Shown: positions 3,722 through 25,944, counted from the stretch's first letter. The stretch is DNA of 30,921 nt from a virus (IMGVR_UViG_3300045988_097310:1-30921), one strand, 5' to 3'. Made by a program: numbers and translations. The notes: a model not told the origin generated them from the letters alone.

Positions 3722-3771
3722 TGTCAGTTTTTATTTTTTCTTAGTACTTTGAGTGAGTAAAAAACTTGACA
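3722..3771 (+). repeat. Copy 1 of a conserved 50-nt imperfect palindrome (TGTCA-N40-TGACA) ending in the invariant 17-mer GAGTAAAAAACTTGACA (3755-3771)
   Basis: The 17-mer is identical in all four copies (3755, 11219, 17382, 25928). Length and flanking half-sites are conserved. The copy is intergenic. Confidence 0.85.
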
Positions 3772-3797
3772 TTAAAGGAGGCTTAGGTCTCCTTTAA
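3772..3797 (+). terminator. Hairpin directly after repeat copy 1 (TTAAAGGAG / loop gcttaggt / CTCCTTTAA), followed by a T-rich tract
   Basis: The 9-bp stem can be read directly in the sequence. It lies at the end of the fiber cassette, 68 nt before the next start codon. Confidence 0.5.
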
Positions 3798-3864
3798 TTA
3801 TTTTAATACATTAGTAAATTGGTTTATATTTTAAGAAAAAGATATGTAAAACTAATGTAAAATT

Positions 3865-4530
3865 ATGCAAAGTGGAACAATTTATAAAATAACTAATTTA
3901 ATAAACAATAAGATTTATATTGGAAAAACCACCAGAGATATTAAGCGTAGGTTCATTGAGCATAAACTGAAAGCAAAATCTGGTTTGGATTATCATTTAA
4001 GTCGAGCTATTAGGAAATATGGAGATAAAAATTTTATTATCGAAGCTATACAGGTATTTTGTTGTACCTCAGAAAGTTTATTAAATAGAAAATTAGATGA
4101 AGCTGAAAAGAAATATATTAATTTATTTAATTCTAAAATAAATGGATATAATATGACAGATGGAGGAGATGGTGGATTTGGACATATAATAACTGAGGAA
4201 ACGAGAAAAAGATTGTCTGAAGCAAAAAGAGGGGAAAAGAATCCAAATTACGGTAAACATACTAGTAATTATTGTAGATCTGGAGAATTTCATCCTTTAT
4301 ATGGAAAATCAAGAAGTGAGGAATGTAAACAAGCTATGAAAGAAGCTTGAAAGACTAGGCCAAATCCCAAATATAAATATATTCTCAGATACTCTTTAGA
4401 TGGAAAACTAATTAAAAAATATAGTCGAATTAGAGAGCTAGAAGACGAATTTACAAGAAGTGGTGTATATAATGCTTTAAGAGGCATAATTCCCACATAT
4501 AAAAAATATATTTGAAAATATGAATTATAG
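3865..4530 (+). CDS. GIY-YIG homing endonuclease (I-TevI-like) with a C-terminal NUMOD/IENR-type DNA-binding tail
   Basis: N-terminus GTIYKITNLINNKIYIGKT...RRFIEH...RAIRKYG is a GIY-YIG core. In-frame TGAs lie at 4348 and 4513. The second gives the family-typical ending KKYI-W-KYEL. The stop is TAG at 4528-4530. Confidence 0.85.
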
Positions 4531-4906
4531 TCTTGTTCTTCAGCATACTGTAACAAAACAAATTTATATTTATAATTTAAATAATCAGAATTATTCTGAA
4601 AATATATATTATAAATTTGATATAACGTTAGATGATAATACACCAGATGGAGAGTATCAGTATGTATTATTTTATAACCCAAATAAATGGGAAATCGTCA
4701 TAGACCCAAATAACATATATCAAGATCAGTACAATAGCTATGTATTAGTCACCTATGATAATATATTAACTACAAATACTAAAATTCTGATAGCTGGAAA
4801 ACCTATTCCAATTCTTAGTACTGGTTTAATTAGAATTGGGGATTATGAAAATCAAAGATACCAATATGATAGACAAAATCAATATATAAGCTATGAAAGA
4901 AAATAA
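4520..4906 (+). CDS. Hypothetical protein (128 aa) upstream of the portal gene
   Basis: Intact ORF that overlaps the upstream stop and the portal start. I recognised no family. Confidence 0.55.
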   Translation: MNYSLVLQHTVTKQIYIYNLNNQNYSENIYYKFDITLDDNTPDGEYQYVLFYNPNKWEIVIDPNNIYQDQYNSYVLVTYDNILTTNTKILIAGKPIPILSTGLIRIGDYENQRYQYDRQNQYISYERK

Positions 4907-5981
4907 AATAAAATCAAATCTAAAACTCTCAGCCATAGATCCTTTCATTCAATCTAACATCGTTCTTCCAACGGAAACAAGGAAAAGAGGTTCTGATATG
5001 ATAATGTGAGGAGAAGATAACAAATATCCATTATATCTATGGGATTTATATTTAAATGTTGCTACTCTCCAATCTATTATTAATGGTTCTGCTGACTTTA
5101 TTGTTGGTAATGATGTTAAATGTAATGCTCCAGGATTTGAGGTAGTTGTAAACAAGAAAGGTGAAACAATAGTTGATATAATGAGAAAAATCACTATTGA
5201 TAAGATGATATTTGGAGGTTATGCTATCCAAGTAATTAGAGATATGCTTGGAAGAGTTGCAGAGATCTATCATATTGATTTTATGAATGTAAGGTCGAGT
5301 GAAAAGAATGATGTATTATATTATGCAACTGATTGGACAGCTTGGTCTGTAAAAGCTATAAAATATCCAAAATTTGGAGCTGGGGATGAAAATCCAGCTA
5401 GTATATTTTATAATAAAGGTTATATAACAAGAGGAGTATATCCTATTCCTGTTTATGGGGCTGCTATTTTATCTTGCGAAACTGAGAAAAATATTAATGA
5501 ATTCCATTTAAATAACATCAATAATGGATTTATGGGTAATCTTATTATTAACTTTAATAATGGGGAACCTACAGATGAAATTAGAGAGGAGATTGAGAGG
5601 AATATTAATGAGAAGTTCTCTGGTTATCAGAATGCTGGCAGAATATTGATTTCATATAATGCAGATGAGGCAAATAAGACTACTATTGAAAGATTAGATT
5701 CTGATGATTTTGATGAGAAATATCAATCATTATCTGAGAGAACCAGAGATCAAATATTCTGTGCCTTCAGAGCTAATCCTAACTTATTTGGAATTAACTC
5801 AGATTCAACTGGTTTTAATGAGCAAGAATTTGAATCTTCATTCAAGCTTTATAATAGAACTATGATTAGACCTATTCAGAAAGAGATTTGTGATTCATTT
5901 GATAAGATCTTTGGAATGCAGAATTCAATCACAATTTCACCATTTAGCCTTAATGAAGCTGATACTAAACAAGTTGAATAA
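4893..5981 (+). CDS. Portal protein
   Basis: ATG 4893 is in frame with track ORF 5181-5981, and the only interruption is TGA 5007-5009 (MIM-W-GEDNKYPLYLWDLY). Length (362 aa), position and the portal-like N-terminal region (QSIINGSADFIVGNDV) fit a portal. Confidence 0.75.
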
Positions 5982-6664
5982 TGGAAAATAATTATAGAAA
6001 TGTACTATTAATATCTGAAGATTATATAAAATCAGAATCTAATCTAGACAATAATGTTTCTGGTAAATATCTTCAGTCAGCAATTAAACTTGCACAAGAT
6101 ATTGAGCTTCAGTCATTAATTGGAACTAAGCTCTTAGAAAAGATTCAGAAATTAGTAATTGATTGAAAAGATCCAAATAAACCAGTTCATCCAATAGAAC
6201 CTCCTATTTATGATCCTACTTCAATAGATGACCCAGAAAATCATAGATATAAAGAATTGCTAGATTACTATATTCAGCCTTATTTACTTTATCAAGTATT
6301 AAGTGAGATTACTATACCCATCTCATTTAAGCTGAGTAATTTTGGGGTTATGAGGACTGATGATGAGAAAGATTTAACTTCTGATATTAGCCAAGTTAAT
6401 CTTATTAAGAAATATTATAGAGATAAAGCAGATTTCTTTAAAACGAGATTACAAAATTGGGTAATTACATATTATAATGATTTTCCTGAATTGTATTCTT
6501 ATAAACCTCTTAAAGATATGTATCCAAATATGTATTCAAGTTCATCTTGTACTATTTGGTTAGGTGGAGCTAGAGGTAAAGGTTGGAGATATAATTCTTG
6601 TGAAGGTCCTCTGCAAAGAGCTTATGATTTCCCTTCAAGTGATAACAATAAAAAGAGTAAGTAA
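5981..6664 (+). CDS. Head-tail connector-like protein (gp6-like); track ORFs 5981-6166 and 6257-6664 fuse through TGA 6164-6166
   Basis: Both ORFs share one frame and the linker has no TAA or TAG. The N-terminus (YLQSAIKLAQDIELQSLIGTKLLEKI) resembles connector/adaptor proteins. Confidence 0.6.
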
Positions 6665-6665
6665 G

Positions 6666-7091
6666 ATGACGTATTTTGAATTAATAAACAATTTAAAAGC
6701 TTGTGCTCTTGAAGAACCCAATATTAATTTTGTAGGAAGTAAGGATATATATGAACTTAATAGTATCCCAACTATTGAATATAATGTATTTTATATAACT
6801 CCAAATACATTTAATATGGATGAGGATACTATTACTTACTCTTTAAATCTCTATTTTATAGCAAGATGGGATGAGACTGATAATAATCAGCTTGAAGAGC
6901 AATCAGCTGGAATATTAGCATTAACTAATATAATTAACCGATTTAATAACCAATATCCAGAAGTTGATATTTCTTATCCTTTAATTTTTACTCCATTTTA
7001 TCAGAAGTTCAAAGATATTTGTACTGGAGTATTTGTTAGAGTTGATTTAGCTGTAGACAATACTCTGGGTACTTGTTCTGATAATATGTAA
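6666..7091 (+). CDS. Hypothetical structural (neck or tail-completion) protein
   Basis: ATG 6666 lies directly after the upstream stop and is in frame with track ORF 6564-7091. The gene sits in the head-tail joining neighbourhood. Confidence 0.55.
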   Translation: MTYFELINNLKACALEEPNINFVGSKDIYELNSIPTIEYNVFYITPNTFNMDEDTITYSLNLYFIARWDETDNNQLEEQSAGILALTNIINRFNNQYPEVDISYPLIFTPFYQKFKDICTGVFVRVDLAVDNTLGTCSDNM

Positions 7092-7747
7092 TGGAAAATA
7101 AATTAAACTGGTTTGGAAAGGTATTAGAATGAGTAGATAAATATGGATTACTAAAGATATTTAAAGCAGGGATTGGATTAATATTTATATCCTATGTAAT
7201 GGTTATTACACTTAATCCCTCTATTGTTTATAATAAGGTTGTAACCTATATTGAACAAACTCACAATTCTAAAACTATTGCAAGAAATGAAGCAACTTTG
7301 AAGATTAAATATAAGCTTAAAGAATTGCTTCAAAGTACCAATGCTGATAGAGCTTGGGTTATTGAATATCATAATGGAACTACTGGATTAGGAGGACTTC
7401 CATTTACCTATGGAGTAATGAATGCAGAGGAAGTAAAACCAGGAATAAGACCTGTAAGTAGCCATTATAAAGATTTCCTGTTATCTGACTATACTTCAAT
7501 TATAGAGTTTTCTAAGAATGATGGATGGTTTGGTAATATAGATAGTTTAGAAGCAGATGATCCAAGATTATATTATGCATTTAAATCCAACAGAGTGAAT
7601 GAAATAGCAGTATTTTATTTAAAGACTGAGGATAAAGATATTGGCATTTTAGGTTTATCATTCTGTGATACACCTATGCCTTATGATACTTGAGTACATC
7701 TAAGAAGAGCTGGAATACAGATAAGTATAATTTTAAATAAAATATAA
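7091..7747 (+). CDS. Membrane-anchored protein (218 aa), first gene of the putative lysis cassette
   Basis: ATG 7091 overlaps the upstream TAA. TGAs at 7130 (VLE-W-VDKYG) and 7691 (YDT-W-VHL) are in frame. A hydrophobic helix (LLKIFKAGIGLIFISYVMVITL) lies near the N-terminus. The stop is TAA at 7745-7747. Confidence 0.6.
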
Positions 7748-7748
7748 T

Positions 7749-7910
7749 ATGAAATATTGGTTAAAATATGTAATTGCAGTAGTTATTATTCTGCTGATAT
7801 GTTTACTAATTAAAGTAATTCCTTTTTGGATTACTGTAGTATTACTTGTAATAGGTGTAGCTTCACATCTATTTTATAGATACGTTATGATTAAAGATGT
7901 ACTTAAATAA
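7749..7910 (+). CDS. Small two-TM protein (53 aa), holin candidate (too short for the ORF track)
   Basis: Translation is MKYWLKYVIAVVIILLICLLIKVIPFWITVVLLVIGVASHLFYRYVMIKDVLK. It has two hydrophobic segments and a charged tail. It lies immediately upstream of the endolysin with a TAATG overlap. Confidence 0.5.
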   Translation: MKYWLKYVIAVVIILLICLLIKVIPFWITVVLLVIGVASHLFYRYVMIKDVLK

Positions 7911-8362
7911 TGAAGTATTTCACACTCGAAGAATTAACAAGATCTGATACTGCTTCAATTAAGCATATAGATAACACTCCAGATGAGAGTATAACAGAGC
8001 ACCTGATAGAGTTGGTCGAGAAGCTTTTAGACCCAATAAGAGAGAGATGGGCAAAGTATTGTGATGACAATCAGCTTGGTAACGCAGGCATCAGGATTTC
8101 CTCTGGTTTTAGAAATAAGGAGCTTAATAAAGCAGTAGGAGGATCTTCAACTTCTGCTCATTTAACAGGGTATGCAGCAGATATATCTCCAATTAATGGT
8201 AATATGAAAGTATTCCAAAGTTGGATTGCTGAAGCTATTGAAGAATTTGATTTCGACCAGTTGATATATGAAAGGCCTAGGAATGGTATAGCAAGTTGAA
8301 TACACTTGGGATTAAAGAATAAAGACGGGATGCAAAGACGACAGAAATTTACTATTATATAA
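7910..8362 (+). CDS. Endolysin, zinc peptidase M15 (VanY / D-Ala-D-Ala carboxypeptidase-like)
   Basis: Carries SGFR, the metal motif SAHLTGYAADI (H..G.A.D) and GIAS-W-IHLG. The W of the conserved SWIH motif is encoded by TGA 8297-8299. The stop is TAA at 8360-8362. Confidence 0.85.
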
Positions 8363-8955
8363 TGTTTTACTATTGTTATAAAATAATTTTAACTGCAGGT
8401 ACATTAAGAGGCAAGTATTATATTGGGAAAAGGATTTATAGAGGTAAAGACATAAATAAAGATCCATATAAAGGATCAGGAAGGATTATTACTAATTATT
8501 ACAAAAGATTCCCTAATGCATACCAAAAGATTATTTTGGCAACTTGCACTAATGCAGATGAATTATCTAAATTAGAATACAAACTAATTGGAGATAAATG
8601 GGACACTGATCCTATGTGTTTAAATTTGAAACCTGGAGGAGAAGGAGGCAATTACGGAGTCAAATTTAATTCTGAATGAAAGAAGAAACTGTCTAATTCT
8701 AATAAGGGAAAGAAACATAATTGCCCAGAATCTTGAAGAGTTAAAGTAGATGCTCATAACAAACAAAGATGTCGTAAAGTAGCTCAGTATGATTTAGATG
8801 GTAATTTTATTCAAGAGTATGAAAGTTGCACAGAAGCAGCCAAATCTGTAGGAACTGATAGAGGAGCTATTAGTAGAGTATGTGGTGGATTAGCAAATAC
8901 AGCTAAAGGATTCAAGTGAAGATATGTTAATAAAAAAGAAAAGGAGGGCAAATAA
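8362..8955 (+). CDS. Divergent GIY-YIG-type homing endonuclease with a C-terminal DNA-binding module
   Basis: N-terminus CYKIILTAGTLRGKYYIGKR. In-frame TGAs lie at 8677, about 8734 and 8917. The last gives the family-typical AKGFK-W-RY ending. Confidence 0.65.
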
Positions 8956-8970
8956 CCCTCCTTTTTGTTT
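8941..8970. terminator. Bidirectional intrinsic terminator between convergent gene blocks
   Basis: AAGGAGGG / loop caaataa / CCCTCCTT followed by TTTGTTT. It lies between the end of the plus-strand GIY-YIG gene and the end of the minus-strand block. Confidence 0.7.
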
Positions 8971-9433: not shown

Positions 9434-11155
9434 TTATTTATTAAATACAAATTTTTTATTAATAATTACATAACCTTCAGTTTGTTTACCATTTACTCTT
9501 TTCTGGCATTTTTTAACTTCATAATATTTATCAATTTCTGTTGCTTTTGGAGTAATAGTAATATCACTAATTTCATAAGCTTCTTTAACAAACTTTTTAA
9601 TATCAGCGTTAGAATACCACATTCCAAGAGTAATTGATTGATTTAACTTCTTAGCTGCTTTATTATCTGCACTTTTATTTGATTTCTTTAATAGAGCATC
9701 TTTAATATCCGAAATGCAATATTTCAAGCTTGCCATCTTTTCGAATCCTAATTTACTAATAGCTTCTGGTAACCAAGGATATTTAATAATAGCATCATTT
9801 AAGAGTGGAGTATTCAGTTTAAATTTATTTTCCCATTCTGTTCTAACTTCTTTAATTAGTTCTTTAAATGGTTTATTATCAGATTCAAAATCAATCTTAA
9901 TAGAGTTGTCTTCACATTCTATTACTTTTTTAAATCCATTCTTTATATATTCTTTATTAAGATTCGTTCTAATAGAATATAAACCTCTTGTCACTTTAAA
10001 GTTAAAAATATCTACCTTAGCCATATTTGGATCAAATGTAAATGTAAAATCATCATTTACTTGGATATAAGTATCAGATGTAAATTCTTTAAGTTTCTTT
10101 CTTGCAACTTCAGGCATTGCATTGTAAGCATCTACAGCAATCTTAGTTTCCTCAATATTCTGGATATTCTTCTTTTTAAAGTCTTCATAACTAATATCTG
10201 CATATCTTGTTGCTGAGTAAAGATGAGTTATCCAGTTTAAATATTTACTATTTCTAATTCTGCCAGCAATCTGTTGGATTGAAGTTGAGATGTCAAGAAG
10301 AGTTTGTGCTTTTTGAGCATCACTTACTACTACAATTCTTCCATTTTCATCATAAATATCAGAACCTTCAAATACTGTAGAAGTTAATAAATTTATTTTC
10401 TTAGGTTCATCTAATACTGTAGAATTATGAATTGATAATTTGGTTTTATTGTTTTTGGAATATATAACTCTGGTATTCTCTTCTGTAAGTTTAGCTTTCT
10501 GAATAAGATTCTTTATAAAGTCCACAGAATTTACAAATATATAAACATTACCTTCAACTTGATTATTAAGAACAGCATTAATTAATTTAATAGTTGAAGC
10601 TTCAACATTCTTACATTTAACGGCTTGTACCTTAGTTTCAATAACATCATCCCATTCTTGTTTTACTAATTCTAAATCTTTTAATTCATCTAATACGAAT
10701 TCTTCTTCAAGAGGAGTTGCAGTCATAAATGTAAAATCTTTAAATAATTTATAGTTCTCTAAAACAGGTTTAATAGCATCCTTTCTAAAGCTATACTGAT
10801 TAAATAGTATATGATATTCATCTACTAATAAACTGTATTCTTTAGTATTAACTGCAGAAATAACCTTCGGAAGTGAGTTATATGTAACAATAATTTTAGG
10901 ACATTTAACACTATCTACGTAATCTTTAATCTCTTTAATAGTAACTCCAGCATAAACTCCAAATATCTTCTCAGTACGTCTTTCATTTGGATATTGTTGA
11001 AGTTTATTCTCAACTAAGCTAGTAAATGGAACACAAATAACATAAGGCTTATTACATTCAATTGCCATTGAAGTTCCTCCACATCCAACTTTTCCTTTAT
11101 CAAATAAGCAGTTAGTTGGCAACTCATTAATCAAATTGTTTAAATATGTTTTCAT
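9434..11155 (-). CDS. SF2 (DExH-type) helicase-like replication protein, 573 aa, no TGA codon
   Basis: Intact ORF under either code. It has a P-loop-like KGKVGCGGTS, VDEYH (motif II) and MTATP (motif III). All five Trp are TGG. Confidence 0.75.
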   Translation of the reverse strand: MKTYLNNLINELPTNCLFDKGKVGCGGTSMAIECNKPYVICVPFTSLVENKLQQYPNERRTEKIFGVYAGVTIKEIKDYVDSVKCPKIIVTYNSLPKVISAVNTKEYSLLVDEYHILFNQYSFRKDAIKPVLENYKLFKDFTFMTATPLEEEFVLDELKDLELVKQEWDDVIETKVQAVKCKNVEASTIKLINAVLNNQVEGNVYIFVNSVDFIKNLIQKAKLTEENTRVIYSKNNKTKLSIHNSTVLDEPKKINLLTSTVFEGSDIYDENGRIVVVSDAQKAQTLLDISTSIQQIAGRIRNSKYLNWITHLYSATRYADISYEDFKKKNIQNIEETKIAVDAYNAMPEVARKKLKEFTSDTYIQVNDDFTFTFDPNMAKVDIFNFKVTRGLYSIRTNLNKEYIKNGFKKVIECEDNSIKIDFESDNKPFKELIKEVRTEWENKFKLNTPLLNDAIIKYPWLPEAISKLGFEKMASLKYCISDIKDALLKKSNKSADNKAAKKLNQSITLGMWYSNADIKKFVKEAYEISDITITPKATEIDKYYEVKKCQKRVNGKQTEGYVIINKKFVFNK

Positions 11156-11185: not shown

Positions 11186-11235
11186 TGTCAATATTTTTAT
11201 TTTCTTACTACTAAAAGTGAGTAAAAAACTTGACA
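11186..11235 (+). repeat. Copy 2 of the 50-nt palindromic element (17-mer at 11219-11235)
   Basis: Same length, half-sites and 17-mer as copy 1. It keeps plus-strand orientation although the flanking genes are on the minus strand. Confidence 0.85.
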
Positions 11236-11270: not shown

Positions 11271-11298
11271 TAGAATTATTAGTTTTAGTTTCATACTG

Positions 11299-11330
11299 CA
11301 AATATAATACATAAAAATTAAATTTCCAAA
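11299..11330 (-). promoter_or_regulatory. Bacteroidota-type promoter (-33 TTTG, 20-nt spacer, -7 TAtaTTTG) facing the helicase operon
   Basis: Plus strand shows CAAATATA at 11299-11306 and CAAA at 11327-11330. These are the reverse complements of TATATTTG and TTTG, with a 20-nt spacer. Confidence 0.6.
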
Positions 11331-11378
11331 TAATTCGGGTATTATTTTTAATAAAAAATTATTTTTTTCTTTACACTA

Positions 11379-11409
11379 CAAATATAATAATAAATTTTTA
11401 TTCTGCAAA
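11379..11409 (-). promoter_or_regulatory. Second Bacteroidota-type promoter (-33 TTTG, 19-nt spacer, -7 TAtaTTTG)
   Basis: CAAATATA at 11379-11386 and CAAA at 11406-11409 on the plus strand. The core and flanks (ACTrCAAATATAATA) are near-duplicates of the 11299 site. Confidence 0.55.
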
Positions 11410-11883
11410 ACTTTTCTTGATTTTTCTTACCCAAAGTTTTGTTAATTTTTTGCCATTCTCTTTTTCGTATCTTTGATTAGCATATTTTATTCAGTCTCAA
11501 TTTAGTGCATTTAATTGAATTGCAGCTCTATTTAATGATACTCCAGATAAGCACAATTCTACTAATTTATCTATATTCTCATTATATCATTCTTTTTTGC
11601 TTTGTTTATTTATTTTTATATTATTTGCACTCTTAAAATCTGCTAATAGCTCTACAATTAATTCATCTGGAAGTTTTAACCATTCTGAATTACTCTTAGT
11701 TTTATATGCTCTATATTTATCTCTATAATAATTTTCATCATCTCTATTTCCTTCTTTTGCTATAAAAAATTCTATCATCTCATTTGGAATAGTATTTTTA
11801 TAAGCAGTTAGTCTGCCACTTATATTAGTAGTGTAACCAACTTTAATAAAATTCGTTTTAGTTAATTTAATTACGTAAATCAT
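11398..11883 (-). CDS. T5orf172 / GIY-YIG-superfamily protein with a C-terminal helix-rich extension (161 aa)
   Basis: IYVIKLTKTNFIKVGYTTNISGRLTAY...EW matches the T5orf172 pattern. Track ORF 11587-11883 ends at a TGA. Reading through three TGAs (E-W-YNEN, LN-W-D-W-IKY) reaches TAA at 11400-11398. Confidence 0.65.
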
Positions 11884-11959
11884 ATTGTTTTTATTAATAT
11901 ATAATAAAAATACAAATAGTAATATTTTTTTGAAAATAATAAAAATAATACCTAAAAAA

Positions 11960-11991
11960 TTTGGAAATTGAATAAAAATGTATTATCTTTG
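11960..11991 (+). promoter_or_regulatory. Bacteroidota-type promoter (TTTG, 20-nt spacer, TAtcTTTG) for the plus-strand early block
   Basis: TTTG at 11960-11963 and TATCTTTG at 11984-11991, 44 nt upstream of ATG 12036. Divergent from the minus-strand block. Confidence 0.6.
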
Positions 11992-12035
11992 TAGTACAAT
12001 AATAAACAAGTATTAACATATTAAATAATAAAATT

Positions 12036-12275
12036 ATGAAAAAAATAAATAAAATTTTAGTTGGTCTTTTAATTGCATCTTCAATTGTTGCAGGTTTTAG
12101 AGTAAATGAAGTCTATCAGGAAAGACAACATAAAACATTTGAATTAAGATTAGAAAGAGCAGAATTAAAACATAAATTAGATTCAGTAATGTGGGTTAAT
12201 CCAGCAAGTGAAGAAGTATCTAATTTATATGAAGAATATTGTGATTTAACACTTAAAATTAATAATATAAAATAA
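12036..12275 (+). CDS. Small N-terminally membrane-anchored protein (79 aa)
   Basis: Intact ORF with a hydrophobic N-terminus (ILVGLLIASSIVAGF). First gene after the promoter. Confidence 0.5.
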   Translation: MKKINKILVGLLIASSIVAGFRVNEVYQERQHKTFELRLERAELKHKLDSVMWVNPASEEVSNLYEEYCDLTLKINNIK

Positions 12276-12712
12276 TGAAAACAGATATAAGAAGTTTAGT
12301 CTTTACAAAGAATCTATTTAAAGAGAAATTTAATATAGATATAGAATGATGTAAAGACGATTATTCCAGGTATGATGGAACATTTAATTGGAATGGAATT
12401 GATTATATAATTGAAGTTAAAAGAAGAAGATTCAATTCTAATAAATATCCAACCACTATTATTAATAGGGATAAATTTGATATGCTATCAAGAAATAATT
12501 CTATATTAGTAATAATATTTGATGATGGAGTATATATATTTAAAGATATAAAACAAGCCTTTATAAAGGATTCTATGAAATATGGTTGTTCTACAACAGA
12601 TTTTGGAGGAACTTATGGCTATTCATTAAAAACAGAGTTGTCTTTAAAGAAAGCCATTAAGATAGATGTAAATACAGAATTTAGTAATTATATAGCAAAT
12701 GATAGCCTATAA
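12275..12712 (+). CDS. Putative PD-(D/E)xK-fold nuclease (145 aa)
   Basis: ATG 12275 overlaps the upstream TAA and is in frame with track ORF 12482-12712 through one TGA (DIE-W-CKDD). A D...IDYIIEVKRR arrangement resembles a D-(D/E)xK nuclease core. The call rests on that motif only. Confidence 0.45.
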
Positions 12713-13193
12713 AAGAATACTTAATTTTGAAAACTACCAAATTGGAACTGATGGCTCAATATGAAGTTTAAGAGCATCAGTTCCAAAGAGGTTAAAACCT
12801 CAAGTAAAAACTAATGGTTACTTTACAGTAACATTATATAATAAAAATTTGAAAAAGAAGTGTTATATACATAGATTAGTAGCTGAAACTTTTATATCTA
12901 ATCCGAATAACTATCCTTGTATAAATCATAAGGATGAAAATAAATCAAATAATAATGTAAGTAATTTAGAACGGTGTACTTATAATTATAATAATAATTA
13001 TGGAACTCATAATCTGCGAGCTGGATATAGTCATAAGAAACCAATACTGCAATTACTAAATGGAATAGTTATTAAAAGATGGGATTCAGCAATAGATGCT
13101 GAGAGAGAACTAAATATACAATCTAGAAATATTGTAAAGGTTCTTAAAGGGCAGCGAAAAACAGCAGGAGGATATATGTGAACATATGAGTAA
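12699..13193 (+). CDS. HNH homing endonuclease (NUMOD4 + HNH_3 type), copy 1
   Basis: Motifs: FENYQIGTDGSI-W-SL, IHRLVAETF, INHKDENKSNNNVSNLE and the ending AGGYM-W-TYE. TGAs lie at 12762 and 13179. The stop is TAA at 13191-13193. Confidence 0.8.
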
Positions 13194-13494
13194 TAACGAA
13201 ATTGTAGAAAAGTACTATCCATTTATTATGGAACTTAAGCAAAAATTTGGTGCAGATGATGACTGTGTTCAAATGATTTTTGTAGAAATACTAGAGTATT
13301 CAAATCCAAAATTAAATCAGCTTGATAGCAAAAATGAATTGAAATTTTGGATTACAAGATTATTTAAGAATTATTGGTTTAGTAAAACAAGTAGATATTA
13401 CTATACCTATAAGAAATATTATGAGATTGTTAAAGAACCACTTGAACAACAAAATGACGAATTGGAGGATTGATTAAATGAAACGGAAGATTAA
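13186..13494 (+). CDS. Sigma-70 region-2-like protein (ECF-like sigma2 domain only)
   Basis: DDDCVQMIFVEILEY and ELKFWITRLFKNYWFSKTSR resemble sigma regions 2.1-2.4. One TGA (13471) precedes the TAA at 13492-13494. Confidence 0.5.
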
Positions 13495-16542: not shown

Positions 16543-16543
16543 T

Positions 16544-17203
16544 ATGAATGTAGCAACTAAATGGGAAGAAGTATCTTTAAAGAAATTCCAAGCTTTAAAT
16601 ACATTTATTATGAGTGATGTAAAAATGACAGATTTAGATAGGAGTATCGAGATCTACTCATTACTTACAGATAACCCAGATGAAGCAAGGGATGCTTTAT
16701 TAAATATGACCGTAGATCAATTATCTGCAGAACTTAGTAAGATTCATTTTATTGTAAATAAATATAAATCCAAAGTTCCAGAAACTGAGTATGATATTGA
16801 TGGTAATAAATATACAGTTCAATTAAATCTCAGAAATATGACTGCTGCTCAGTATATTGATTTTCAGAACTTTTATAAAGATTATGAAAAGAATCAGAAG
16901 TATATATTCTTATGCTTTTTAATTCCTAAAGGAAAGAAGTATAATGAGGGTTATGATGTAATGGAACTAGCAGAAGATTTATATGATAAGATTCCAATTA
17001 CTATTGTTACTGATGTAATGGTTTTTTTTTGCAAATTATTAGAGAGCTTAACCATAGCTACCCTAATCTCTTCAATGCGGGAGATGAAGAAATTGATGAA
17101 AAAGGAGAAAGATCCAGTAAAGAAACATCAATTACGGAAGAGGATAGTTCAAGCGAGACAAACTCTGAATTTAGTCAAAAATGGAACTGGATTTGTTGAA
17201 TAG
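16544..17203 (+). CDS. Hypothetical protein, zero-frame product (219 aa); chaperone-like gene with an internal slippery run
   Basis: Intact ORF ending at TAG 17201-17203. It contains the T9 run at 17022-17030. Confidence 0.6.
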   Translation: MNVATKWEEVSLKKFQALNTFIMSDVKMTDLDRSIEIYSLLTDNPDEARDALLNMTVDQLSAELSKIHFIVNKYKSKVPETEYDIDGNKYTVQLNLRNMTAAQYIDFQNFYKDYEKNQKYIFLCFLIPKGKKYNEGYDVMELAEDLYDKIPITIVTDVMVFFCKLLESLTIATLISSMREMKKLMKKEKDPVKKHQLRKRIVQARQTLNLVKNGTGFVE

Positions 17204-17346
17204 ACAGAGTTAGTGAAGTAACAAGGTTAAACTGGCATCAAGTATATGATATGCAGATTCAAGAGTTTTTGAATATTATTTGCTACTTACTTGATAAAGG
17301 GAAAGAAGAAAAAAGACAAATAGATCTTTGAAAAGCTAAACACTAA
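17023..17346 (+). CDS. -1 frame extension reachable from the U_UUU_UUU site (predicted fusion product about 267 aa)
   Basis: The -1 frame has no TAA or TAG from 16990 to TAA 17344-17346, about 118 codons in an AT-rich genome. It reads plausibly: ...FFLQIIRELNHSYPNLFNAGDEEIDEKGEK...RLNWHQVYDMQIQEFLNIICYLLDKGKEEKRQIDL-W-KAKH. Confidence 0.45.
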
Positions 17347-17348
17347 AA

Positions 17349-17398
17349 TGTCAGTTTTTATTTATTTTAACTACTAAAAGTGAGTAAAAAACTTGACA
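17349..17398 (+). repeat. Copy 3 of the 50-nt palindromic element (17-mer at 17382-17398)
   Basis: Identical 17-mer and the same TGTCA-N40-TGACA geometry. It starts 3 nt after the -1 frame stop. Confidence 0.85.
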
Positions 17399-17401
17399 CT
17401 T

Positions 17402-17426
17402 AAATAGGGAGTAAATCTCCCTATTT
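17402..17426 (+). terminator. Hairpin after repeat copy 3 (AAATAGGGAG / loop taaat / CTCCCTATTT), followed by GTGTTT
   Basis: Perfect 10-bp stem read directly in the sequence. The next start codon is 43 nt downstream. Confidence 0.5.
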
Positions 17427-17468
17427 GTGTTTAGATACTCAATATGAGAATGATATATTTTAGTAAAA

Positions 17469-17948
17469 ATGGCAAATCAAGTTTTGGATTTTCCCAATTT
17501 AGAAGCTGTCTTAAAACAATATGGAGAACAATTACTTTCTATATATAGGCAGAAATTACTACAAACTGGTTCAGATGATACGGGAACTCTTGGTAATACA
17601 CTTAATTATATAGTTGAAGATCAAGATGAAGTATATGAAGTTAGTTTGCAAATACAAGATTATTGGAAGTATGTTGAGGATGGCAGAAATGCAGGAAAGT
17701 TTCCTCCTATCAGTGATATAAAAAGGTGAATACAAACTAAGCCTGTATTACCTCGTCCATATAATGGATTACTTCCAACTATTGATCAATTAGCATATTT
17801 AATAGCAAGAAAGATTTCCAAAAGAGGAATTGAAGGCAAACATATATTAGAGGAATCATTAACTGAATTAGATGCTTATATGTTATTAGATGATGCAATT
17901 ACAAAAGATTTAGAAACACAAGTTGATAATGTATTTAAAAACTTTTAA
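17469..17948 (+). CDS. Neck / tail-completion protein (HK97 gp10-like pattern)
   Basis: Track ORF 17469-17729 continues through TGA 17727-17729 (DIKR-W-IQTKP) to TAA 17946-17948. The segment YWKYVEDGRNAGKFPP resembles the gp10-family Y..YVE.G motif. Confidence 0.55.
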
Positions 17949-17950
17949 AA

Positions 17951-20131
17951 ATGGCATTTATACCAAGTAAATTAGGAATATATAATGCATCAAGGAGTTT
18001 TCCTGTTAAATGGAATAATCCTGGATGGGGAATTACTGGAGAATATGATTATTGGACTTGGGGAGATGATTATACTGAAGAAGGGCCTTTAAATGTAACT
18101 ATACAGGATCCAAGTAAAGAAGGATGTACAATACAATTTTTATCTCCTACAACAATAACTACTGATTCTTCTACTGTATTTCATTTTTATCCTAGAGGTA
18201 TTACTACTGCTTTATTAGGGGAAGATTTACCAATTAATTTACATAGTAAAGCTCCTGGATATTATCCTGCTAATAGTAGTATTAATGTACCAAATACTGG
18301 TGGAGAATATACAGTAGAGTATATATTAAATAGATCAGATATTATTAAATGAGATGCGGCAGTTGTTAATGCTACAGCTTTAGTTAATATGGAAGTTCTG
18401 GATTGGGATTCTTGCTCTATTAAGTTTAAATTCACAGTAAGAGCTAATACTCAATGGAATACAGATTTAACTGGAACTATCCAATTAGGAGCTTATTATG
18501 ACACTAATAAATTTATTAGTTATAGTTATGGCTTTAAAATTGAAAAAAGTAATACTCCAGAAGATTTAAAGCTAGTAGTAACTCCTTCATCTGGAACTTA
18601 TGGAGCATCTGCTTTTGTTACTGAAGAATTCCATTTAAGTACAACTAAAGCAGAAGAAACAATTACCTCATTTAATGTTACCTGCCCTCAAGCTAGTAAT
18701 ATTAAAAAGGATATTGTTGATAACTATTTTGTATTAACTGTTCCAGAGAATAAAACTACTAATAATTTAGAGTTTAGTGCAATGGTTACTGCAACAACTT
18801 CTGGAGGTTATACTCTTGAAGCTACAGTTCCAATTAAACAAGCTGCAACATCTTTAATGATTCCTAATACTAATTATGAAGTAAGTTGAACTGCATCTAC
18901 ATTAAATATAATTGGTACAGGCTCAAATAACTTAGATGATGTTGTATTTAGTATTCCTGTAGGTTGGATTAGTGGTCAGAAGTTCTCTGTGAATCCTCAA
19001 GGTGTAGCAACTATTAGTTTGAACATTGCAGAAAATTCAGGTTTATCTTCTAGACAAGCAACTATTGGAGTATCTGTTATAAAGAATAGTTCAAGTATTA
19101 TTAATTTATCTATTAATATTACACAATCTGTTAAATCTGATATATCTCCTATTTGGAAAGATTATGTTTGGAATGAGATAATCAGTTCAGATTTTATTGA
19201 ATATCATCTAGATTATGCAGGAGATATGGTTTATGCTGGCAAGGCTTATAAATATCCTGAAACAGATAGAGTAGAGTTTCTATTAAATAATGTAGCTGAA
19301 AATTATCTATCTAATGGAATTATATTTAATACTTCTAAAACTATAATATCTCCAGAATATTTGAAATCATTTACTTTGATAACATCTAGTGGAAATGAAA
19401 AACCAATTACTTTCTTCAATGACTGGAGTTATAAAGATAGAGATCTAACTAAAGGCACTATGTTAAGTGATCCTATTACTGGTTTAGTTGATCCAAGGCA
19501 GTATTTAGTATCAAGTTGAATTCTACCAACTGGAACTGGAGTTATTAATAGATTCTTTTATATAGATGGAGTACAATCTGCTATGGATATTAGTTTAAAT
19601 TCTGGAATTAATGGATATACATATACAGAAGATTTAAGTAATAAATTATGGCCTTGTGGAAGCTATTTAATAGTAGGATTTGTAGAAGGTGGAAATATTA
19701 GTGATAGACAGATTAGATATGATATAGATACTACAGGTAAAGATTATGTGCTATATTATACTAATTCAGCAGGTGGATGGGATTCATTACTTGTTGAGGG
19801 TAATGTTAGAAAGAATGATGAGATTAAATCTGAAACATATACTCGCAAGGTATTAAATACATCACAAGAGTTTGCAAGAAATAAGTATTTGAATACTATA
19901 ACTTCAAGCTGGGTTCTTTATACTGGTTATTTAAATGATATTCAAGCTTCTAAGATGTTTAATCTAATTGAGAGTACCAAAGTATATTTGCATAATCTTA
20001 AAGATAATACTATCACTCCAGTATTGATTACAGATACAAATTGTGAATATAAAACTTATACTAATCAAGGTAAAAACAAGTTCTATTATACAATTAATGT
20101 AGAAGCTTCTCAAGATACTTATCGTAAATAA
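17951..20131 (+). CDS. Large tail/baseplate protein (726 aa) with Ig/BACON-like domains (Dit-like candidate)
   Basis: Four track ORFs (17951, 18389, 18989, 19583) share one frame and are joined through TGAs at 18350, 18887 and 19517. YEVS-W-TAS...VGWISG...ISLNIAENSGLSSRQATIGVSV matches the BACON-type pattern. Confidence 0.7.
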
Positions 20132-20133
20132 TT

Positions 20134-23100
20134 ATGAGAAAGAATATTAAACTATTTATTGCAAATAAAGAGGTTGACTGTAGTGAGGGAATTAGTCTTC
20201 CTATGACATATACTGTTGAGGATTTCCAAAACCCCACTATAGTCAAGAACTCGTTTAGTAAAACGATTTCTATACCTGGCACAAAGAATAATAATAAGAT
20301 TTTTGGAGAGATTTATAAGTTAGATAGATTTCTCCATATAAAAGAAGGTAATTTCTCTGGAGTATATTTTGATCCTTCAAAACGAGTTGATTTTGGAATT
20401 TATAATAATGGCTATTTAGTTGAATCTGGATATATGCAATTAAATAGCATATCTATAAAACAAGCTGTCATTACTTATAATATTACTTTATATGGAGGAT
20501 TAGGAGATTTCTTCTATGGACTTAAATATAAAGAAGATGGTACTATTAGGACTCTTGCTGATTTACAATACTTTGTAACTGATGAAGATGGGAATACACT
20601 TCCTGCTGATACTGAACTTAATTTTTATATTAACAAAGATTTTGTAAATACTTGTTTTGACTGAAGTAAAACGAATGAAGGAAGTCAAATATATGATTAT
20701 TTGACATTTATTCCAGCATATAATGGTTTATATGAAGATTTTGATAATGAAAGTTGTTTAATAAATACTAATGAAAATAGTATATTTCCTACTAGTAAGA
20801 CAGATTCAGGAGTTACATATACACCTTATAATGGATATGGATTAGCTAAATTAAATAGAGCATATACAGAATGGGAGATGAGAGATCTTAGAAGTTATAT
20901 GCAGAGGCCAGCTTTAAAATTGAGTAAGTTAATTGAAACTATCTGTAGAAAAGAGAATTCTGGATATGATGTAGTATTTGATCCTTCATTTTTTAATTGA
21001 AATAATCCGTATTGAAGTAAATCCTTTGTAGCTTTACCTTTATTATCTAATCTAGTAAGTGACGAAGCAGATGTAACAGAATCTGGCTTTTTAGTAGAAG
21101 ATAGTAAATATAATTATCAGGTAGGTATAAATAAAGGAGAATCTACATCAAGTCCTTTAAAATTATCCATTGCATCACCTGATATTGTTTACGATTCTGG
21201 AATAATTGATTTAAGTGAGGCTGGATTTAGAAAAAGCCTTTCTACAACTTTTTATTTTAAGTTAAAGTTTAATCGAACTGCAGGAAATGTTGGGGATAGA
21301 TATTTTTTTGGATTTAGAAGGTATTTTAGCTCCTCTGCTCCTCCTTTTTATTCAGCATATAGAGGATACGCTGATGTTTGGCTAACAATTACTAATGAAG
21401 TAGATGATACTATTTATACTTCTGAAATACATAGATTTACAAATTCAGGAACCTACTCACATCCTATAGCTAATGGGGTTAATCATTTTGGGTATTTTCA
21501 AAATAATGTATTTTATGATACTTCTTCATTAACTAATGATTTTGTTATTAATATTACAAATTTTAAAATTCCAATTAATAAAATTAAAATTAAACTTAAT
21601 GTTGTATGATCTACTGGAAATAGTGTTAGACCTACTGGATTATTAAGTGAAGTAATAGAAAGAGGAGAGGATTACCAAGCTATTCCAAAAGGAGATCTTA
21701 TAGTAGATCTTACTTCTCCCATTGAAATTACTACTTCTACAGAGGTACTTCAAAGTAATGCATTATTAACTAAAAAATTATTATTAAAAACAGAACAATC
21801 TCCTGCTGATTACTTATTGAGTTATGCAAAACTATTTGGGTTATATTTTACAAAAGATATTGATAGTAAAACAATTAGAATATATACTAGAAATAATTTC
21901 TTTAAGAATATAATCTCTGATTGGAGTAAGAGAATAGATTATTCTAAAGATTTCAATGTAAATCCAATATTATTTGATAAGAAGTGATATAGAATGAGTT
22001 CTGAAGGTCCAGAAACTTATTTTTATAAAAAATACAATAAGGAATATTCTATATTATATGGTCAACAAAGATTAAATACTGGTTATAATTTTAATTCTGA
22101 AACAACTGAACTGTATAGTGATAATATATATGAAAATATAGTTTCTGCAAGATGGAGAAATAAATATTTTAGAAATTTTTACAATTCTTCTTCCCTTGTA
22201 GTTCCTGCATTTATGAATGATAATATTACCTATACATTATTTAATAATAGCACTACTGAACTTAAGACTATAGATCAAGAGTTATACGGAGCTAATTTTA
22301 TAGATCCCTCTAAAACCACAGAATGATATAAAATCGCAGGTAATGATATATTTGCCAAAAATGTATTTTTCTCAATTGATGGTAATGAGGAATCTTTAGA
22401 GGATATCTCTCAATCCCTAGTATTCTTTAACGGTAATGTTCCTTTAACTGATGTAAAAGGAAATGAAGTAACATATTGAATTACAGATGATCTTACAGAA
22501 ATGAACATATTAAATGATCAGGAAATGTGTTATATATCTACTAAAAGTGAGAAAGATATTAGGGGGAATAAAATTGCTATAAAGAGAACTGTATTACCTC
22601 AATTTACAAGGTATACCGTTTCGTCCTCTAATGTTACTGCTTCTTGAGATTTTGGATTACCACAAGAGATTTATATTGATGATATAACTTATAATATCGG
22701 AAGTACTATTTATAGTAGATTCTGGAGTGAATTTTATAATGATCAATTTGATGTAAATACTAAAAAAGTTACCTGCTTTGTAAGATTGGATGATTTAGAT
22801 GTTAAGTATGATTTACTTAGACAGTTCTATTATTTTGAAGATTCTTACTGGGTACTTAATAAGATTGATGCTTATGATATTAATTCAGATTCTACAGTTA
22901 GATGTGAATTTATTAAAGTTCAAGATATTAATAGTTATTTAGCTGGAATTCAAAATTTAGGTGAGTATATATCATTTGACGATTCAGATCCAGTTGTAGA
23001 TTATAAAGCTGGGACTAAAAAGATTACAGTTACTTCTAATATTCCTTGAGAATTAGGATGATATAGTCCAAATGAAATTGTAAGCATTACACCTGAATCT

Positions 23101-23493
23101 GGGCAGCCTGGAGAAACAGAATTGACAGTTACATATAATGAGAATACTACATATAATCAAAGGAGTTTCTATTTTAGTCTTTATAAACAAGGAAGTATAA
23201 ATGGCCCTCAATGTATGTTTACTCAAACTCCAGACCCAAATAAAGCTATTCTTATTACAGGAAAGCTTCAAACTTCTACTGGAGGTATTCCTTCTGGCGT
23301 TAATCAGATTCTAACTGAAAATGATAATTTCTTAAATGTCACTTATATGAGAGATGATGGAAGTTATAGAATATATGCTCAAAATGGAGTTCAATTTTTA
23401 TTTAGAGTATCTGACGGACCAACAGGAACAGTTAAATATACAGAGAATTTAACACTAACAGAAGATACTGTTAAAAACGTAACTATAAACTAA
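20134..23493 (+). CDS. Very large tail hub / receptor-binding protein (1119 aa) with a C-terminal BACON-like domain
   Basis: Five track ORFs share one frame. I hand-translated the gaps 21001-21993 and 22327-22785 and found no TAA or TAG, including a stretch of about 198 codons with no Met. There are ten in-frame TGAs (20662, 20998, 21013, 21607, 21985, 22324, 22477, 22645, 23047, 23059). NIP-W-ELG-W-YSPNEIVSITPESGQPGETELTVTYNENTTYNQRSFYFSL is BACON-like. Confidence 0.7.
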
Positions 23494-23494
23494 T

Positions 23495-25828
23495 ATGGCT
23501 GAAGAAATTAAAAAAGTAATTAGTGTAGATACTAAAACCAGTTCAAAGTCGATCAAGCAGCTACGAGAAGAAGTAGCTGGCTTGACGGCTGAACTTGAAG
23601 ATCTTGAGATTGGTAGTACTGACTATACTAAAAAGCTTGAAGAACTTGTTAATGTTCAAAATAAGTTAGGTGTTGCTACAGAATCTATGCAAGGTAAAAC
23701 TGTAAATGCAGTTAAGGCGTTTGACAGTATAAATCAAGTAGCAGGAGGTTTAGCTGGAGGAGTTTCAGCTGTTAGTGCAGCATTCACTTTATTTGGAAAA
23801 GATACAGAGAATCTTCAAAAAACTATGGTTAAATTGCAAGCAGCAATTGCTATAGTTCAGGGAATTGGAGGATTAAAAGGTTTAGGTGAAGGTATTCTTA
23901 ATGGAGTAAAATCATTTAAAGCCTTATCTGTAGCAATGGGTGGTGCTACGGCTGCAACTGGAGGATTATCTGTAGCAATGGGTGTGCTACGGTCTGCAAT
24001 TATATCTACAGGAATTGGAGCTTTAGTTGTAGCTCTTGGTATGTTAATAGATTTTGCAATTAAAGCAGCATCAGGAATTGATGATTTAAAAATTAGTATT
24101 TCTGGTTTAAAAGATATAACTGATCAATGAGGAACAAGTTACTCCAGAGCTAATACTGAAATTGCAGGATTGGAGAGACAAAGAGAGAGAGATTTAGCTG
24201 CTGGTAAAAAAAGTGAAATACAAATTTGGAAAGATTATGCTGAAGCATTAGGAGATTTAGATGCTGAATTATTTCATCAATTTGGCAGTGTAACTAAAGC
24301 ATATTCTGACTCATTTACTAATATACTTAAAAGTAATAAATACTTCAAAAAAGAATTTAAGAAATCTGGATATGAAACTTGGGAAGATTATTCCAAAGCA
24401 ATACAATGAGGATTAAAGAATAGTTCTAATGAAGTTGATTTCTTTTTAAGTAAGTTAAATGAGGATCAAAAAGCGGCTTATGATGAAGCTTCTGGTATTT
24501 ATAATACATATCTTGAGAAGCGAAATGATTTAATGCAAAAATCTGCTGAAGCTTATGAAAAAGTTAAGTTAATGGAGATTGCTGCAGAACGTAAGCAGAG
24601 AGAAGATGCTAAAGCCCAGTATCTAAAGAATATAGAAGATAGAAAGAAACATAATCAAGATCTGCTTAAAGTTATTAACGATTTCTATGAAGAAAATAGG
24701 AAACTTCTTTTAGATGATGAAGCAAGAGAACTTGATGAATTAAATAGAAACTACCAGAATCAATTAGATGCACTTAAAGAAGCCTATAATCTCAAATTAA
24801 TAACAGTTAAAGAATATAATGAGAGATTAAAGCAGGTAAATGATGCATATAATAAAGAGTGACTAGATAATAATAATGAACGTTATAGAGAAGACTTAGA
24901 AAATAGATTATCTGCATTACAAGAAATGCAAGATAGGGAATCTCAATTATTTGCAAATAAAGAGGCTGCATTATCTGCAGGTAAATCTGGAAGTTATGAA
25001 ACTAGAGTTCAACAATTTGGTTCAACGGATTTTTATCAATCTGGAGAAGATGTTCAAAGACAATATCAAGATACATTAGCTTATAATGAACAGTTATATA
25101 ATCTCACTAAAGATAGAATTACAAGAGAGAATGAATTGATGTCTCAACAGCAAGCTATTTTAGATGAGCAATATAACAATAAGCTGATAACTGAACAAGA
25201 ATATGCCAATCAATCTCAAGCAATTAAATTACAGCAAGAAGCTAATGATATAGCTTTATCAGAAGCAGCTAATGCAAGAGAAGAAGCAGATCTTCAAGCA
25301 TTTAAAGATAGACAAGCTAAAAAGCAACAGGCTATTCAAGCTACTATGAATGTAGCTTCTTCTTTAAGTGGAGCTTTAGCTAATGTATTTAAACAAGAAG
25401 CTAGTGATGATTCAAAATCAGAGAAGCAAAGAGAGAAATCATTTAAAGTTTATAAAGCATTAGCTACTACTCAAGCTATTATTGATACTATCAGTTCTGC
25501 CCAAGGTGCATATAAAGCTATGGTGGGTATTCCATTTGTAGGACCTATTCTTGCTCCTATTGCAGCTGCTACTGCTGTTATAGCTGGTATTGCTAATGTA
25601 AAAGCTATCCAAAATGAGCAGCTTCCTTCATCTGGAGGTTCTGGAAGTGATGCAGGAACTACTGCTCCTGCTGCTTTAAATACAGCTCCTGTAGAATATA
25701 CTCGAAACTTACTTGGCAATAAAGAGACTGATGAATTGAATCAACCAGTTAAATGTTATGTAGTTGAGAGTGATATTACTACTGCTCAAACTAAAGTTGC
25801 AGTTACAGAATCAAATGCAAGTTTCTAA
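23495..25828 (+). CDS. Tape-measure-like or internal/ejection protein (777 aa)
   Basis: Four track ORFs share one frame and are joined through TGAs at 24128, 24407 and 24860. The protein has long coiled-coil Q/E/K-rich regions plus Gly/Ala-rich hydrophobic segments (GGLAGGVSAVSAAFTLFG, GIPFVGPILAPIAAATAVIAGIA). Confidence 0.65.
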
Positions 25829-25847
25829 AGTGAGTAAAATTTATGAC
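25829..25847 (+). repeat. Degenerate right-arm copy of the repeat (AGTGAGTAAAATTTATGAC), starting directly after the upstream TAA stop
   Basis: The motif in context reads AAAGTGAGTAAAATTTATGACAC, against AAAGTGAGTAAAAAACTTGACAC in copy 3. Confidence 0.6.
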
Positions 25848-25892
25848 ACACTACTATGTAAGTTGCTGATTATCAGTGCTTATATAGTAGTG
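25848..25892 (+). other. Nested hairpin: CACTACTAT ... ATAGTAGTG enclosing CTGAT-ta-ATCAG
   Basis: A 9-bp outer inverted repeat (25848-25856 and 25884-25892) and a 5-bp inner one, read directly in the sequence. Confidence 0.55.
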
Positions 25893-25895
25893 CTA

Positions 25896-25944
25896 TGTCA
25901 AAATTTATTTATCTTAGATACAAATTTGAGTAAAAAACTTGACA
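25896..25944 (+). repeat. Copy 4 of the palindromic element (49 nt; 17-mer at 25928-25944)
   Basis: Identical 17-mer and TGTCA/TGACA half-sites. It lies 79 nt upstream of the first capsid-module gene. Confidence 0.85.

Follow-up and report, generated by a model that had tools for sequence, protein, structure and literature searches.

A dispersed palindromic element at gene-block junctions of a TGA-recoded gut phage looks like a portable transcript-boundary signal and not like a promoter

The 30,921-nucleotide (nt) stretch of viral DNA IMGVR_UViG_3300045988_097310:1-30921, hereafter the window, harbors four dispersed copies of a short imperfect palindrome, here called the element, which is a real, constrained, and clade-specific repeat located at the junctions between blocks of genes. 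The two ends of the window are identical over 55 bases (1-55 = 30867-30921), and the assembly is therefore closed (circular or circularly permuted), with a length of about 30.87 kb (30,866 bp). Around this circle, tail fibre genes extend from 29409 across the origin to 3717 and are followed by a block with a GIY-YIG gene, the portal, and the lysin (3865-8955), by two minus-strand genes (9434-11155 and 11398-11883), by small genes together with the terminase and two HNH genes (12036-17346), by large structural genes (17469-25828), and by the capsid block (26024-29317). All four copies of the element are intergenic and all lie on the plus strand; the junctions which hold copies 1 to 4 are referred to below as junctions 1 to 4.

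Copy 1 (3722-3771, 50 nt, TGTCAG...CTTGACA) lies 4 nt past the stop codon of the gene 2698-3717, scores 69.0 bits with a covariance model which we built from 26 variants of the element and ran on the window with filters off, and has a predicted RNA minimum free energy (MFE) of -10.7 kcal/mol. Copy 2 (11186-11235, 50 nt, 64.4 bits; MFE -12.1 kcal/mol on the plus strand and -9.6 kcal/mol on the minus strand) sits between the two genes on the minus strand, at 30 nt upstream of where the 573-amino-acid (aa) gene 9434-11155 starts, and is antisense to local transcription, since both of its neighbors are encoded on the minus strand. Copy 3 (17349-17398, 50 nt, 72.1 bits; MFE -13.1 kcal/mol, z = -3.5) is found 2 nt past the stop codon (17344-17346) of a conserved frame, while copy 4 (25896-25944, 49 nt, 56.1 bits; MFE -8.3 kcal/mol) has no strong hairpin after it. 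The next plus-strand gene follows copies 1, 3, and 4 after 93, 70, and 79 nt, respectively.

The 17-mer GAGTAAAAAACTTGACA is identical in all copies and has exactly four matches in the window, all on the plus strand, against a chance expectation of 0.26; none of 100 shuffled sequences reached four matches, and no further match with up to three mismatches was detected in the window. The longer sequence GTGAGTAAAAAACTTGACA is identical in copies 1 to 3. Thus, direct inspection of the sequence, exact-match searches, and the measured gaps agree with a preliminary description of this DNA, which had reported four intergenic copies at these coordinates, an invariant 17-mer with a longer match in three copies, and a distance of 70 to 93 nt between three of the copies and the next gene. 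The covariance model finds just these four copies in the window (56 to 72 bits), the next hit at another locus having an E value of 2.1, and its weaker opposite-strand matches at the same sites occur because the element is palindromic. A search against Rfam, which also covers CRISPR repeats and established phage RNA elements, returned no hit at the gathering or E-value thresholds, the best sub-threshold score being 23.9 bits against a threshold of 56.

The typical layout of a junction consists of a stop codon, the element, often a 3' intrinsic terminator hairpin, and then a host-type promoter. Copy 1 is followed by a hairpin of 12 pairs with the tail TATTTTAATA (3771-3798, plus strand) which scores as a plus-strand terminator and is predicted to fold in tandem with the copy. 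Next to copy 2, the GGCAGG/CCTGCC hairpin with the tail ACTTTTTG (11270-11252) scores as an intrinsic terminator on the minus strand, and after copy 3 the plus-strand hairpin AAATAGGGAG/CTCCCTATTT (17402-17426) is conserved along with the element. The hairpins after copies 1 to 3 had already been described, with the proposal that their differences resemble covariation; the hairpins exist, but the stems are mutually unrelated and terminator-like, and their differences are therefore not covariation. The element itself, with 2 to 4 G-C pairs and no T tail, is not called by the terminator scan, which calls its neighbors at 3771-3798 (plus) and 11270-11252 (minus). A pairing of the element with the downstream stems as an antiterminator, considered by eye, was dropped because the stems vary between copies and the element does not.

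As for the promoters, the preliminary description had noted that no TAnnTTTG motif lies downstream of the copies. This holds for the strict motif, perfect instances of which mark the early divergent region, but a near-consensus Bacteroidota-type -7 element, the TATATTTT box, is present on the plus strand at 3825-3832, 32 nt before the start codon at 3865, and at 17454-17461, 7 nt upstream of the ATG at 17469, where it is retained in all junction-3 alleles. The box at 3825 is probably the real promoter of the block starting at 3865, and that at 17454 is the probable promoter of the block starting at 17469. In the early region, a 70-nt inverted repeat (11284-11353 and 11937-12006, 77% complementary) flanks the T5orf172 gene and corresponds to two divergent early Bacteroidota-type promoters (TTTGGAAATT ... 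TGTATTATnTTTGnAGTA), a motif also found twice in the relative L152. Strong bidirectional terminator-like pairing is seen at 8938-8966, between the convergent gene 8362-8955 (plus) and the minus-strand genes, and a further terminator-like stem is located at 29327-29356.

Upstream of copy 4, a degenerate fifth copy of the right arm (AGTGAGTAAAATTTATGACA, 25829-25848, plus strand) directly follows the stop codon of the gene 23495-25828 and is variable among relatives, and a long plus-strand hairpin, CACACTACTATGTAAG...CTTATATAGTAGTG (25849-25893), lies between it and copy 4. Across this hairpin, the left arm of copy 4 is able to pair with the degenerate copy, so that two mutually exclusive folds result for 25826-25960. 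The conserved frame preceding copy 3 (17204-17346) has its first start codon not before 17251 and is open back to 16990, overlapping the gene 16544-17203, which suggests a programmed frameshift extension of that gene; the stretch 16990-17346 is conserved in the relatives L152 to L154.

For comparison, 77 loci were fetched around terminase homologues ranging from 100% to 23% identity, and L-numbers are the labels of these relative contigs. The exact 17-mer occurs in dozens of IMG/VR contigs of about 30 kb, and the search of related contigs with the covariance model, which the preliminary description had proposed, yielded 150 further copies in 37 distinct variants, including compensated changes at the ends, every one of them in phage contigs of about 30 kb whose large terminase (TerL) is at least 80% identical. 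No copy was found in L152 to L154 (TerL 56 to 77% identical), nor in IMG/VR relatives with TerL identity of 50% or less (L107 to L149). At the equivalent of junction 3 in L152 to L154, the two genes abut or overlap, and at the equivalents of junctions 1 and 4 there is just a promoter-like stretch homologous to that of the window. Since the element is absent from these intermediate relatives, it was probably inserted: on this comparison, the element, often together with a terminator stem, was probably gained in one sub-clade, with loss in the sampled intermediate relatives as the alternative. A scan of 185,579 representative bacterial and archaeal genomes gave two matches, in Lactococcus and Clostridium, which we judged to be due to chance, and a source in a host-genome miniature inverted-repeat transposable element (MITE) or in a prophage was rejected on these grounds. 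Spread to unrelated phages was likewise rejected, as the other contigs from two 17-mer scans showed no element context.

At junction 3, in contigs whose flanking coding DNA is 68 to 71% identical, the element is 94 to 100% identical and the adjacent 42 nt containing the hairpin (17399-17440) are 93 to 100% identical, the promoter stretch being 75 to 79% identical. To judge by these alignments, this conservation would reflect either strong constraint or recent transfer of a cassette. The content of the junctions differs among close relatives: L073, L076, L081, and L091 have an extra copy absent from the window; such an extra copy, seen in several genomes, is in minus orientation and comes immediately behind the stop codon which ends the 572-aa gene on the minus strand, where the window has none. 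The all-plus orientation given in the preliminary description thus applies to the window and not to the relatives, in which flipped and minus-strand copies occur; copy 2 is always in plus orientation, despite its minus-strand neighbors. Copies 1 and 3, like the minus-strand extra copy of L073, begin 2 to 4 nt past a stop codon when read in the direction of transcription. The 572-aa helicase-like gene of L073 is flanked by two copies in inverted orientation, 4630-4679 (minus) and 6426-6474 (plus), and in L084, L086, and L152, the 572-aa gene and copy 2 are wholly replaced by other genes. The relatives are highly mosaic, with alignment boundaries that peak at homing-endonuclease and tail genes; of 309 boundaries among 34 relatives, none falls at junction 3, 6 fall at junction 2, and 13 fall at junction 4. 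A role as a recombination linker was rejected, as breakpoints are not enriched at the copies.

Relatives with 35 to 41% TerL identity possess dispersed palindromes of their own, unrelated to the element, which measure 50 to 105 nt and lie 6 to 41 nt past stop codons at equivalent junctions. We found them in L143 (1, 998, 1322, and 12951), L145 (about 3953, 4984, 5555, 12556, and 19967), L142 (5071 and 11227), L132 (2812, 8971, and 12639), and L130 (1271 and 7542). Their arms are perfect (13 to 21 bp), their centers are inverted between copies in L142, L143, and L145, and two of the families start with TGTAAC and end with GTTACA. One palindrome arm of L130 recurs inverted 6.2 kb away.

RNA folding of the element is strongly biased toward the plus strand. 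The four copies of the window fold at -8.3 to -13.1 kcal/mol (z = -1.9 to -3.5) as plus-strand RNA and at -4.5 to -9.6 kcal/mol as minus-strand RNA, and over 36 variants the means are -11.1 versus -6.3 kcal/mol, with the plus strand better in 33 of 36 and z values down to -7. The bias arises from conserved G-U pairs formed by the left-arm AUUUAU with the right-arm GUGAGU, and the plus-strand stem consists of about 20 AU and GU pairs with a small internal loop. On the transcribed strand, a double-stranded RNA of about 20 bp with an internal loop is predicted for copies 1, 3, and 4, while for copy 2 and flipped junction-3 copies just 12 to 14 bp remain. The ends of the element covary: at the pair 4-49, 29 variants have C-G and 7 have A-U, none showing a mismatch (TGTCA/TGACA and TGTAA/TTACA), and a TGTCTA/TAGACA end is compensated in 3 variants. 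End types TGTCA, TGTAA, and TGTCT are mixed within one genome, and pairing therefore matters more than the letters themselves. The right arm is invariant over the 37 variants, and the left arm drifts.

On the whole, the element looks like a portable transcript-boundary palindrome and not like a promoter, and the interpretation which we tentatively favor is that of an RNA hairpin at transcript boundaries, serving in processing or in 3' protection, which was acquired as a portable cassette and spread by duplication. When the upstream block is transcribed, the element would fold as a hairpin in the 3' untranslated end of the mRNA. This hairpin could act as a boundary signal, either as a site of RNase III-type processing of double-stranded RNA, comparable to those of phage T7, or as a protective 3' stem together with the adjacent terminator, and would separate or stabilize the messages of neighboring modules; the invariant right arm may be the part read by a trans-acting factor. 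The position after stop codons, the plus-strand folding bias, the pairing of the ends, the adjacent terminators, the conservation, and the analogous palindromes of distant relatives are all compatible with such a boundary hairpin. In T7, the RNase III sites (R0.3, R1.1, and others) are a handful of related intergenic hairpins of about 50 nt with a lower stem, a small internal loop, and an upper stem. They are found between blocks of genes, always on the transcribed strand, and provide a protective hairpin at the 3' end. The element differs from them in that it has no sequence relationship to them, its stems are almost pure AU/GU, and both copy 2 and the copies flipped at junction 3 run antisense to transcription.

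Several observations weigh against a boundary hairpin. Copy 2 is antisense and would belong to the 5' leader of the 573-aa gene on the minus strand. The junction-3 copy of 14 contigs is turned around at its site, between the same upstream stop codon and a homologous downstream hairpin and with the GAGTAAAAA core kept, and the transcribed strand of these flipped copies retains only the 12-bp outer stem, at -7 to -12 kcal/mol. Five variants have an uncompensated TGTCTA/TTGACA end, and support for the inner stem is weak, with 81.5% of cells paired versus 80.2% in shuffles and 13 of 500 shuffles reaching the observed value; the right arm, which never varies, is for that reason unable to covary. 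Furthermore, the junction 29318-29408 lacks the element although it has both a terminator and a TATATTTT box, which means that the element is not required for a boundary. The composite terminator or 3' stabilizer and the RNA-processing site listed among the roles in the preliminary description are compatible with these data; position, folding bias, and terminators speak for them, and copy 2 and the flipped copies put them under strain.

The most serious rival places the function at the DNA level: a protein of the phage or the host would recognize the GAGTAAAAA(A)C core and the TGT...ACA ends in double-stranded DNA, independently of orientation, and the site could serve as a stoperator-like roadblock to elongation or as an upstream activator or insulator site for the adjacent promoters. 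We consider this role, also among those of the preliminary description, possible, if less probable than a boundary hairpin. It would account for a core which is kept whatever its orientation to transcription, both in copy 2 and in the flipped junction-3 copies, for a right arm that stays constant in all 37 variants next to a drifting left arm, looking more like recognition of a sequence than of structure alone, and for the perfect palindromes with flippable centers in distant relatives. Counted by hand, 53 to 56 nt separate the element from the TATATTTT box at junctions 1 and 3, in alleles whose hairpins differ; however, two alleles of junction 4 have spacings of 38 and 64 nt, and L090 has one of 25 nt, so that a fixed distance between element and promoter, true at junctions 1 and 3, was rejected as a general property. 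That the end pairs differ within one genome favors pairing over recognition of particular bases at the ends, folding is strongly strand-biased owing to the conserved G-T oppositions, and no candidate protein tracks the element, the helix-turn-helix (HTH) gene pair discussed below being found also in element-free relatives. The stoperators of mycobacteriophage L5 and the dyad activator sites at late promoters of P2 and Mu are also dispersed intergenic copies served by one regulator, and the P2 dyad has the form TGT...ACA. Here, by contrast, the dyad spans about 44 bp instead of 12, the distance to the promoter varies, the ends covary, and no regulator was identified.

A second serious rival, to which we give slightly less weight, holds that the element is a selfish miniature mobile palindrome, similar to MITEs or to repetitive extragenic palindromes (REPs), homogenized by recombination or by an unknown enzyme and tolerated without a dedicated function. 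MITEs such as Correia or nemis elements and REPs are small and intergenic, have terminal inverted repeats, occur in either orientation with presence/absence differences, and form hairpins when transcribed. Viral MITEs have been surveyed (bioRxiv 10.1101/2024.01.18.576219). The element shares with MITEs its imperfect terminal inverted repeats, with TG...CA ends, and its presence/absence differences among the relatives of this phage, from the extra copies in L073, L076, L081, and L091 to none in L152 to L154. Both orientations at one site, cassettes which are 100% identical within backgrounds of 68% identity, as fits recent transfer, the lineage-specific palindrome families of relatives, and the many homing-endonuclease genes of the genome, drivers of gene conversion, point the same way. 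Yet the element measures no more than 50 nt and is restricted to a single phage clade; the flanks, which were checked, show target-site duplications at no copy, and neither a transposase nor a recombinase is among the proteins scanned. The element is missing from the 185,579 bacterial and archaeal genomes apart from the two chance matches, and also from unrelated phage contigs. Gene conversion would homogenize the entire element, and it is just the right arm that is invariant; moreover, the insertions always fall neatly between a stop codon and a promoter.

More speculative, and in our view improbable, is that the copies form a sense/antisense network, or that they represent a novel type of miniature mobile palindrome which phages carry and which inverts itself. 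In a network, the 19-nt right arm at the 3' ends of plus-strand messages would be exactly complementary to the antisense copy 2 or, in some genomes, to flipped junction-3 copies. The plus-strand messages could pair in trans with the message of the early 573-aa gene, and the latter would thereby be cut as double-stranded RNA. Such a network would explain the identity of the right arm among copies and the joint changes of type within a genome. With regard to self-inversion, a segment with inverted repeats does occur in both orientations between the same flanks at junction 3, as in an inverton, and no inverton recombinase was detected among the proteins scanned. To our knowledge, an invertible core of 26 bp would be far shorter than known invertible segments.

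We regard as very improbable that the element is a site of strand-specific nicking, cleavage, or recombination used by an I-HmuI-like HNH or GIY-YIG enzyme of the phage. Such a site would be in keeping with the architecture of arms and asymmetric spacer, with the two I-HmuI-like HNH genes along with the GIY-YIG genes, with the L073 gene flanked by inverted copies, and with the dispersal of an asymmetric, conserved motif (about 19 nt) in a small number of copies which in the window all share the plus strand. An asymmetric core within an inverted repeat would resemble lox or hix sites and the nick consensus of T5-like and phiKMV-like phages. However, no link between a nuclease gene and the element emerged, and the breakpoints among the 34 relatives are not concentrated at it (0 at junction 3 and 6 to 13 of 309 at junctions 2 and 4).

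The preliminary description had put forward a late promoter or operator read by phage sigma domains encoded at 13186-13732; in such a promoter, TTGACA or the left arm would be the recognition element. The product of 13186-13494 has no match in Pfam, PHROG, or PDB sequences, and its AlphaFold model (mean pLDDT 79) gave none in Foldseek at an E value of 0.001 or below. That of 13478-13732 is a small generic HTH protein which matches HTH_50, with Sigma70_r4 scoring under the Pfam cutoff. Homologues of both, with 44 to 66% identity, persist in L152 and L153, which have no element, and co-occurrence of phage sigma regions 2 and 4 with the element was rejected on these two counts; in L086, an HNH gene is found between the two homologues. 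Two features speak for such a promoter: three gene blocks are preceded by a conserved motif containing TTGACA, and on the minus strand the left end of copy 2 supplies TTGACA-17-AATTAT immediately ahead of the 573-aa gene. It is nonetheless disfavored to the point of being highly unlikely, as no copy has a conserved -10 at 16 to 18 nt after TTGACA, a terminator-like hairpin stands between element and gene, 14 contigs have the element in inverted orientation at the same place, L152 has just the downstream promoter-like stretches of junctions 1 and 4 with no element, and the proposed sigma proteins lack a sigma signature. Likewise, neither a -35/-10 pair at the fixed spacing of sigma-70 or extracytoplasmic function (ECF) promoters nor an open path to the gene was found.

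Taken as a class, the element comes closest to T7 RNase III sites, MITEs and REPs, and the PeSL cassettes of T4-like phages, and no definition of these fits it fully. PeSL cassettes are composite terminator/promoter motifs (PMC2839356, PMC4122927). They resemble the present junctions in being short conserved intergenic repeats of stem-loop and promoter, in many copies at module boundaries, with insertions and deletions between close relatives. Composite junctions with a stem and a promoter are present here too, but only the 50-nt AU-rich palindrome is repeated, while the adjoining stems and promoters differ from junction to junction. Furthermore, breakpoints are not concentrated at the copies over the 309 boundaries checked, and the promoters are of the Bacteroidota -7 type and not sigma-70 early promoters.

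According to its sequence, the source of the window is an uncultivated, TGA-recoded gut phage without a cultured relative. A megablast search of 25 kb against GenBank phages gave no match, and a protein search with TerL for cultured relatives reached a best identity of 29%. The G+C content is 29%. When TGA is read as a sense codon, coverage by long open reading frames on the plus strand rises from 23.7 to 28.8 kb, and fragments are joined into proteins of up to 1119 aa. The large terminase has a single TGA codon, opposite which homologues have W or F, and TGA is therefore read as Trp. TGA serves as Trp in most genes of the window; by contrast, the capsid block (26024-30920 in this comparison) has 11 TGG and no TGA, and the 573-aa gene, whose product gave a weak helicase-like match only and no PDB relative, has 5 TGG and no TGA. 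No transfer RNA (tRNA) or transfer-messenger RNA was found in a search of the window, and hence no suppressor tRNA. Within the same terminase family, TAG recoding is seen in L130, L136, L140, and L148 and TGA recoding in L117, and the standard code is used as well (compare bioRxiv 10.1101/2021.08.26.457843).

Six genes with homing-endonuclease-type domains are present in this 31-kb genome, namely, 3865-4530, 8362-8955, 11398-11883 (minus), 12699-13193, 13717-14202, and 26616-27227. The domains are GIY-YIG in two genes, HNH/I-HmuI-like in two, T5orf172 in one, and a NUMOD1 DNA-binding domain only in one. A direct repeat (12866-13007 and 13872-14013) falls inside the two HNH genes.

The element is a conserved non-coding feature which marks the boundaries of gene blocks in uncultured recoded gut phages and offers a handle for transcript mapping. 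Because it comes and goes among close relatives and flips in place, it may illustrate the movement of regulatory cassettes between phage genomes rich in homing endonucleases. The unrelated palindromes at the same junctions of distant relatives suggest a general design principle and not a one-off. Should the element prove to be just a tolerated selfish palindrome, it would still be a useful marker of the clade.

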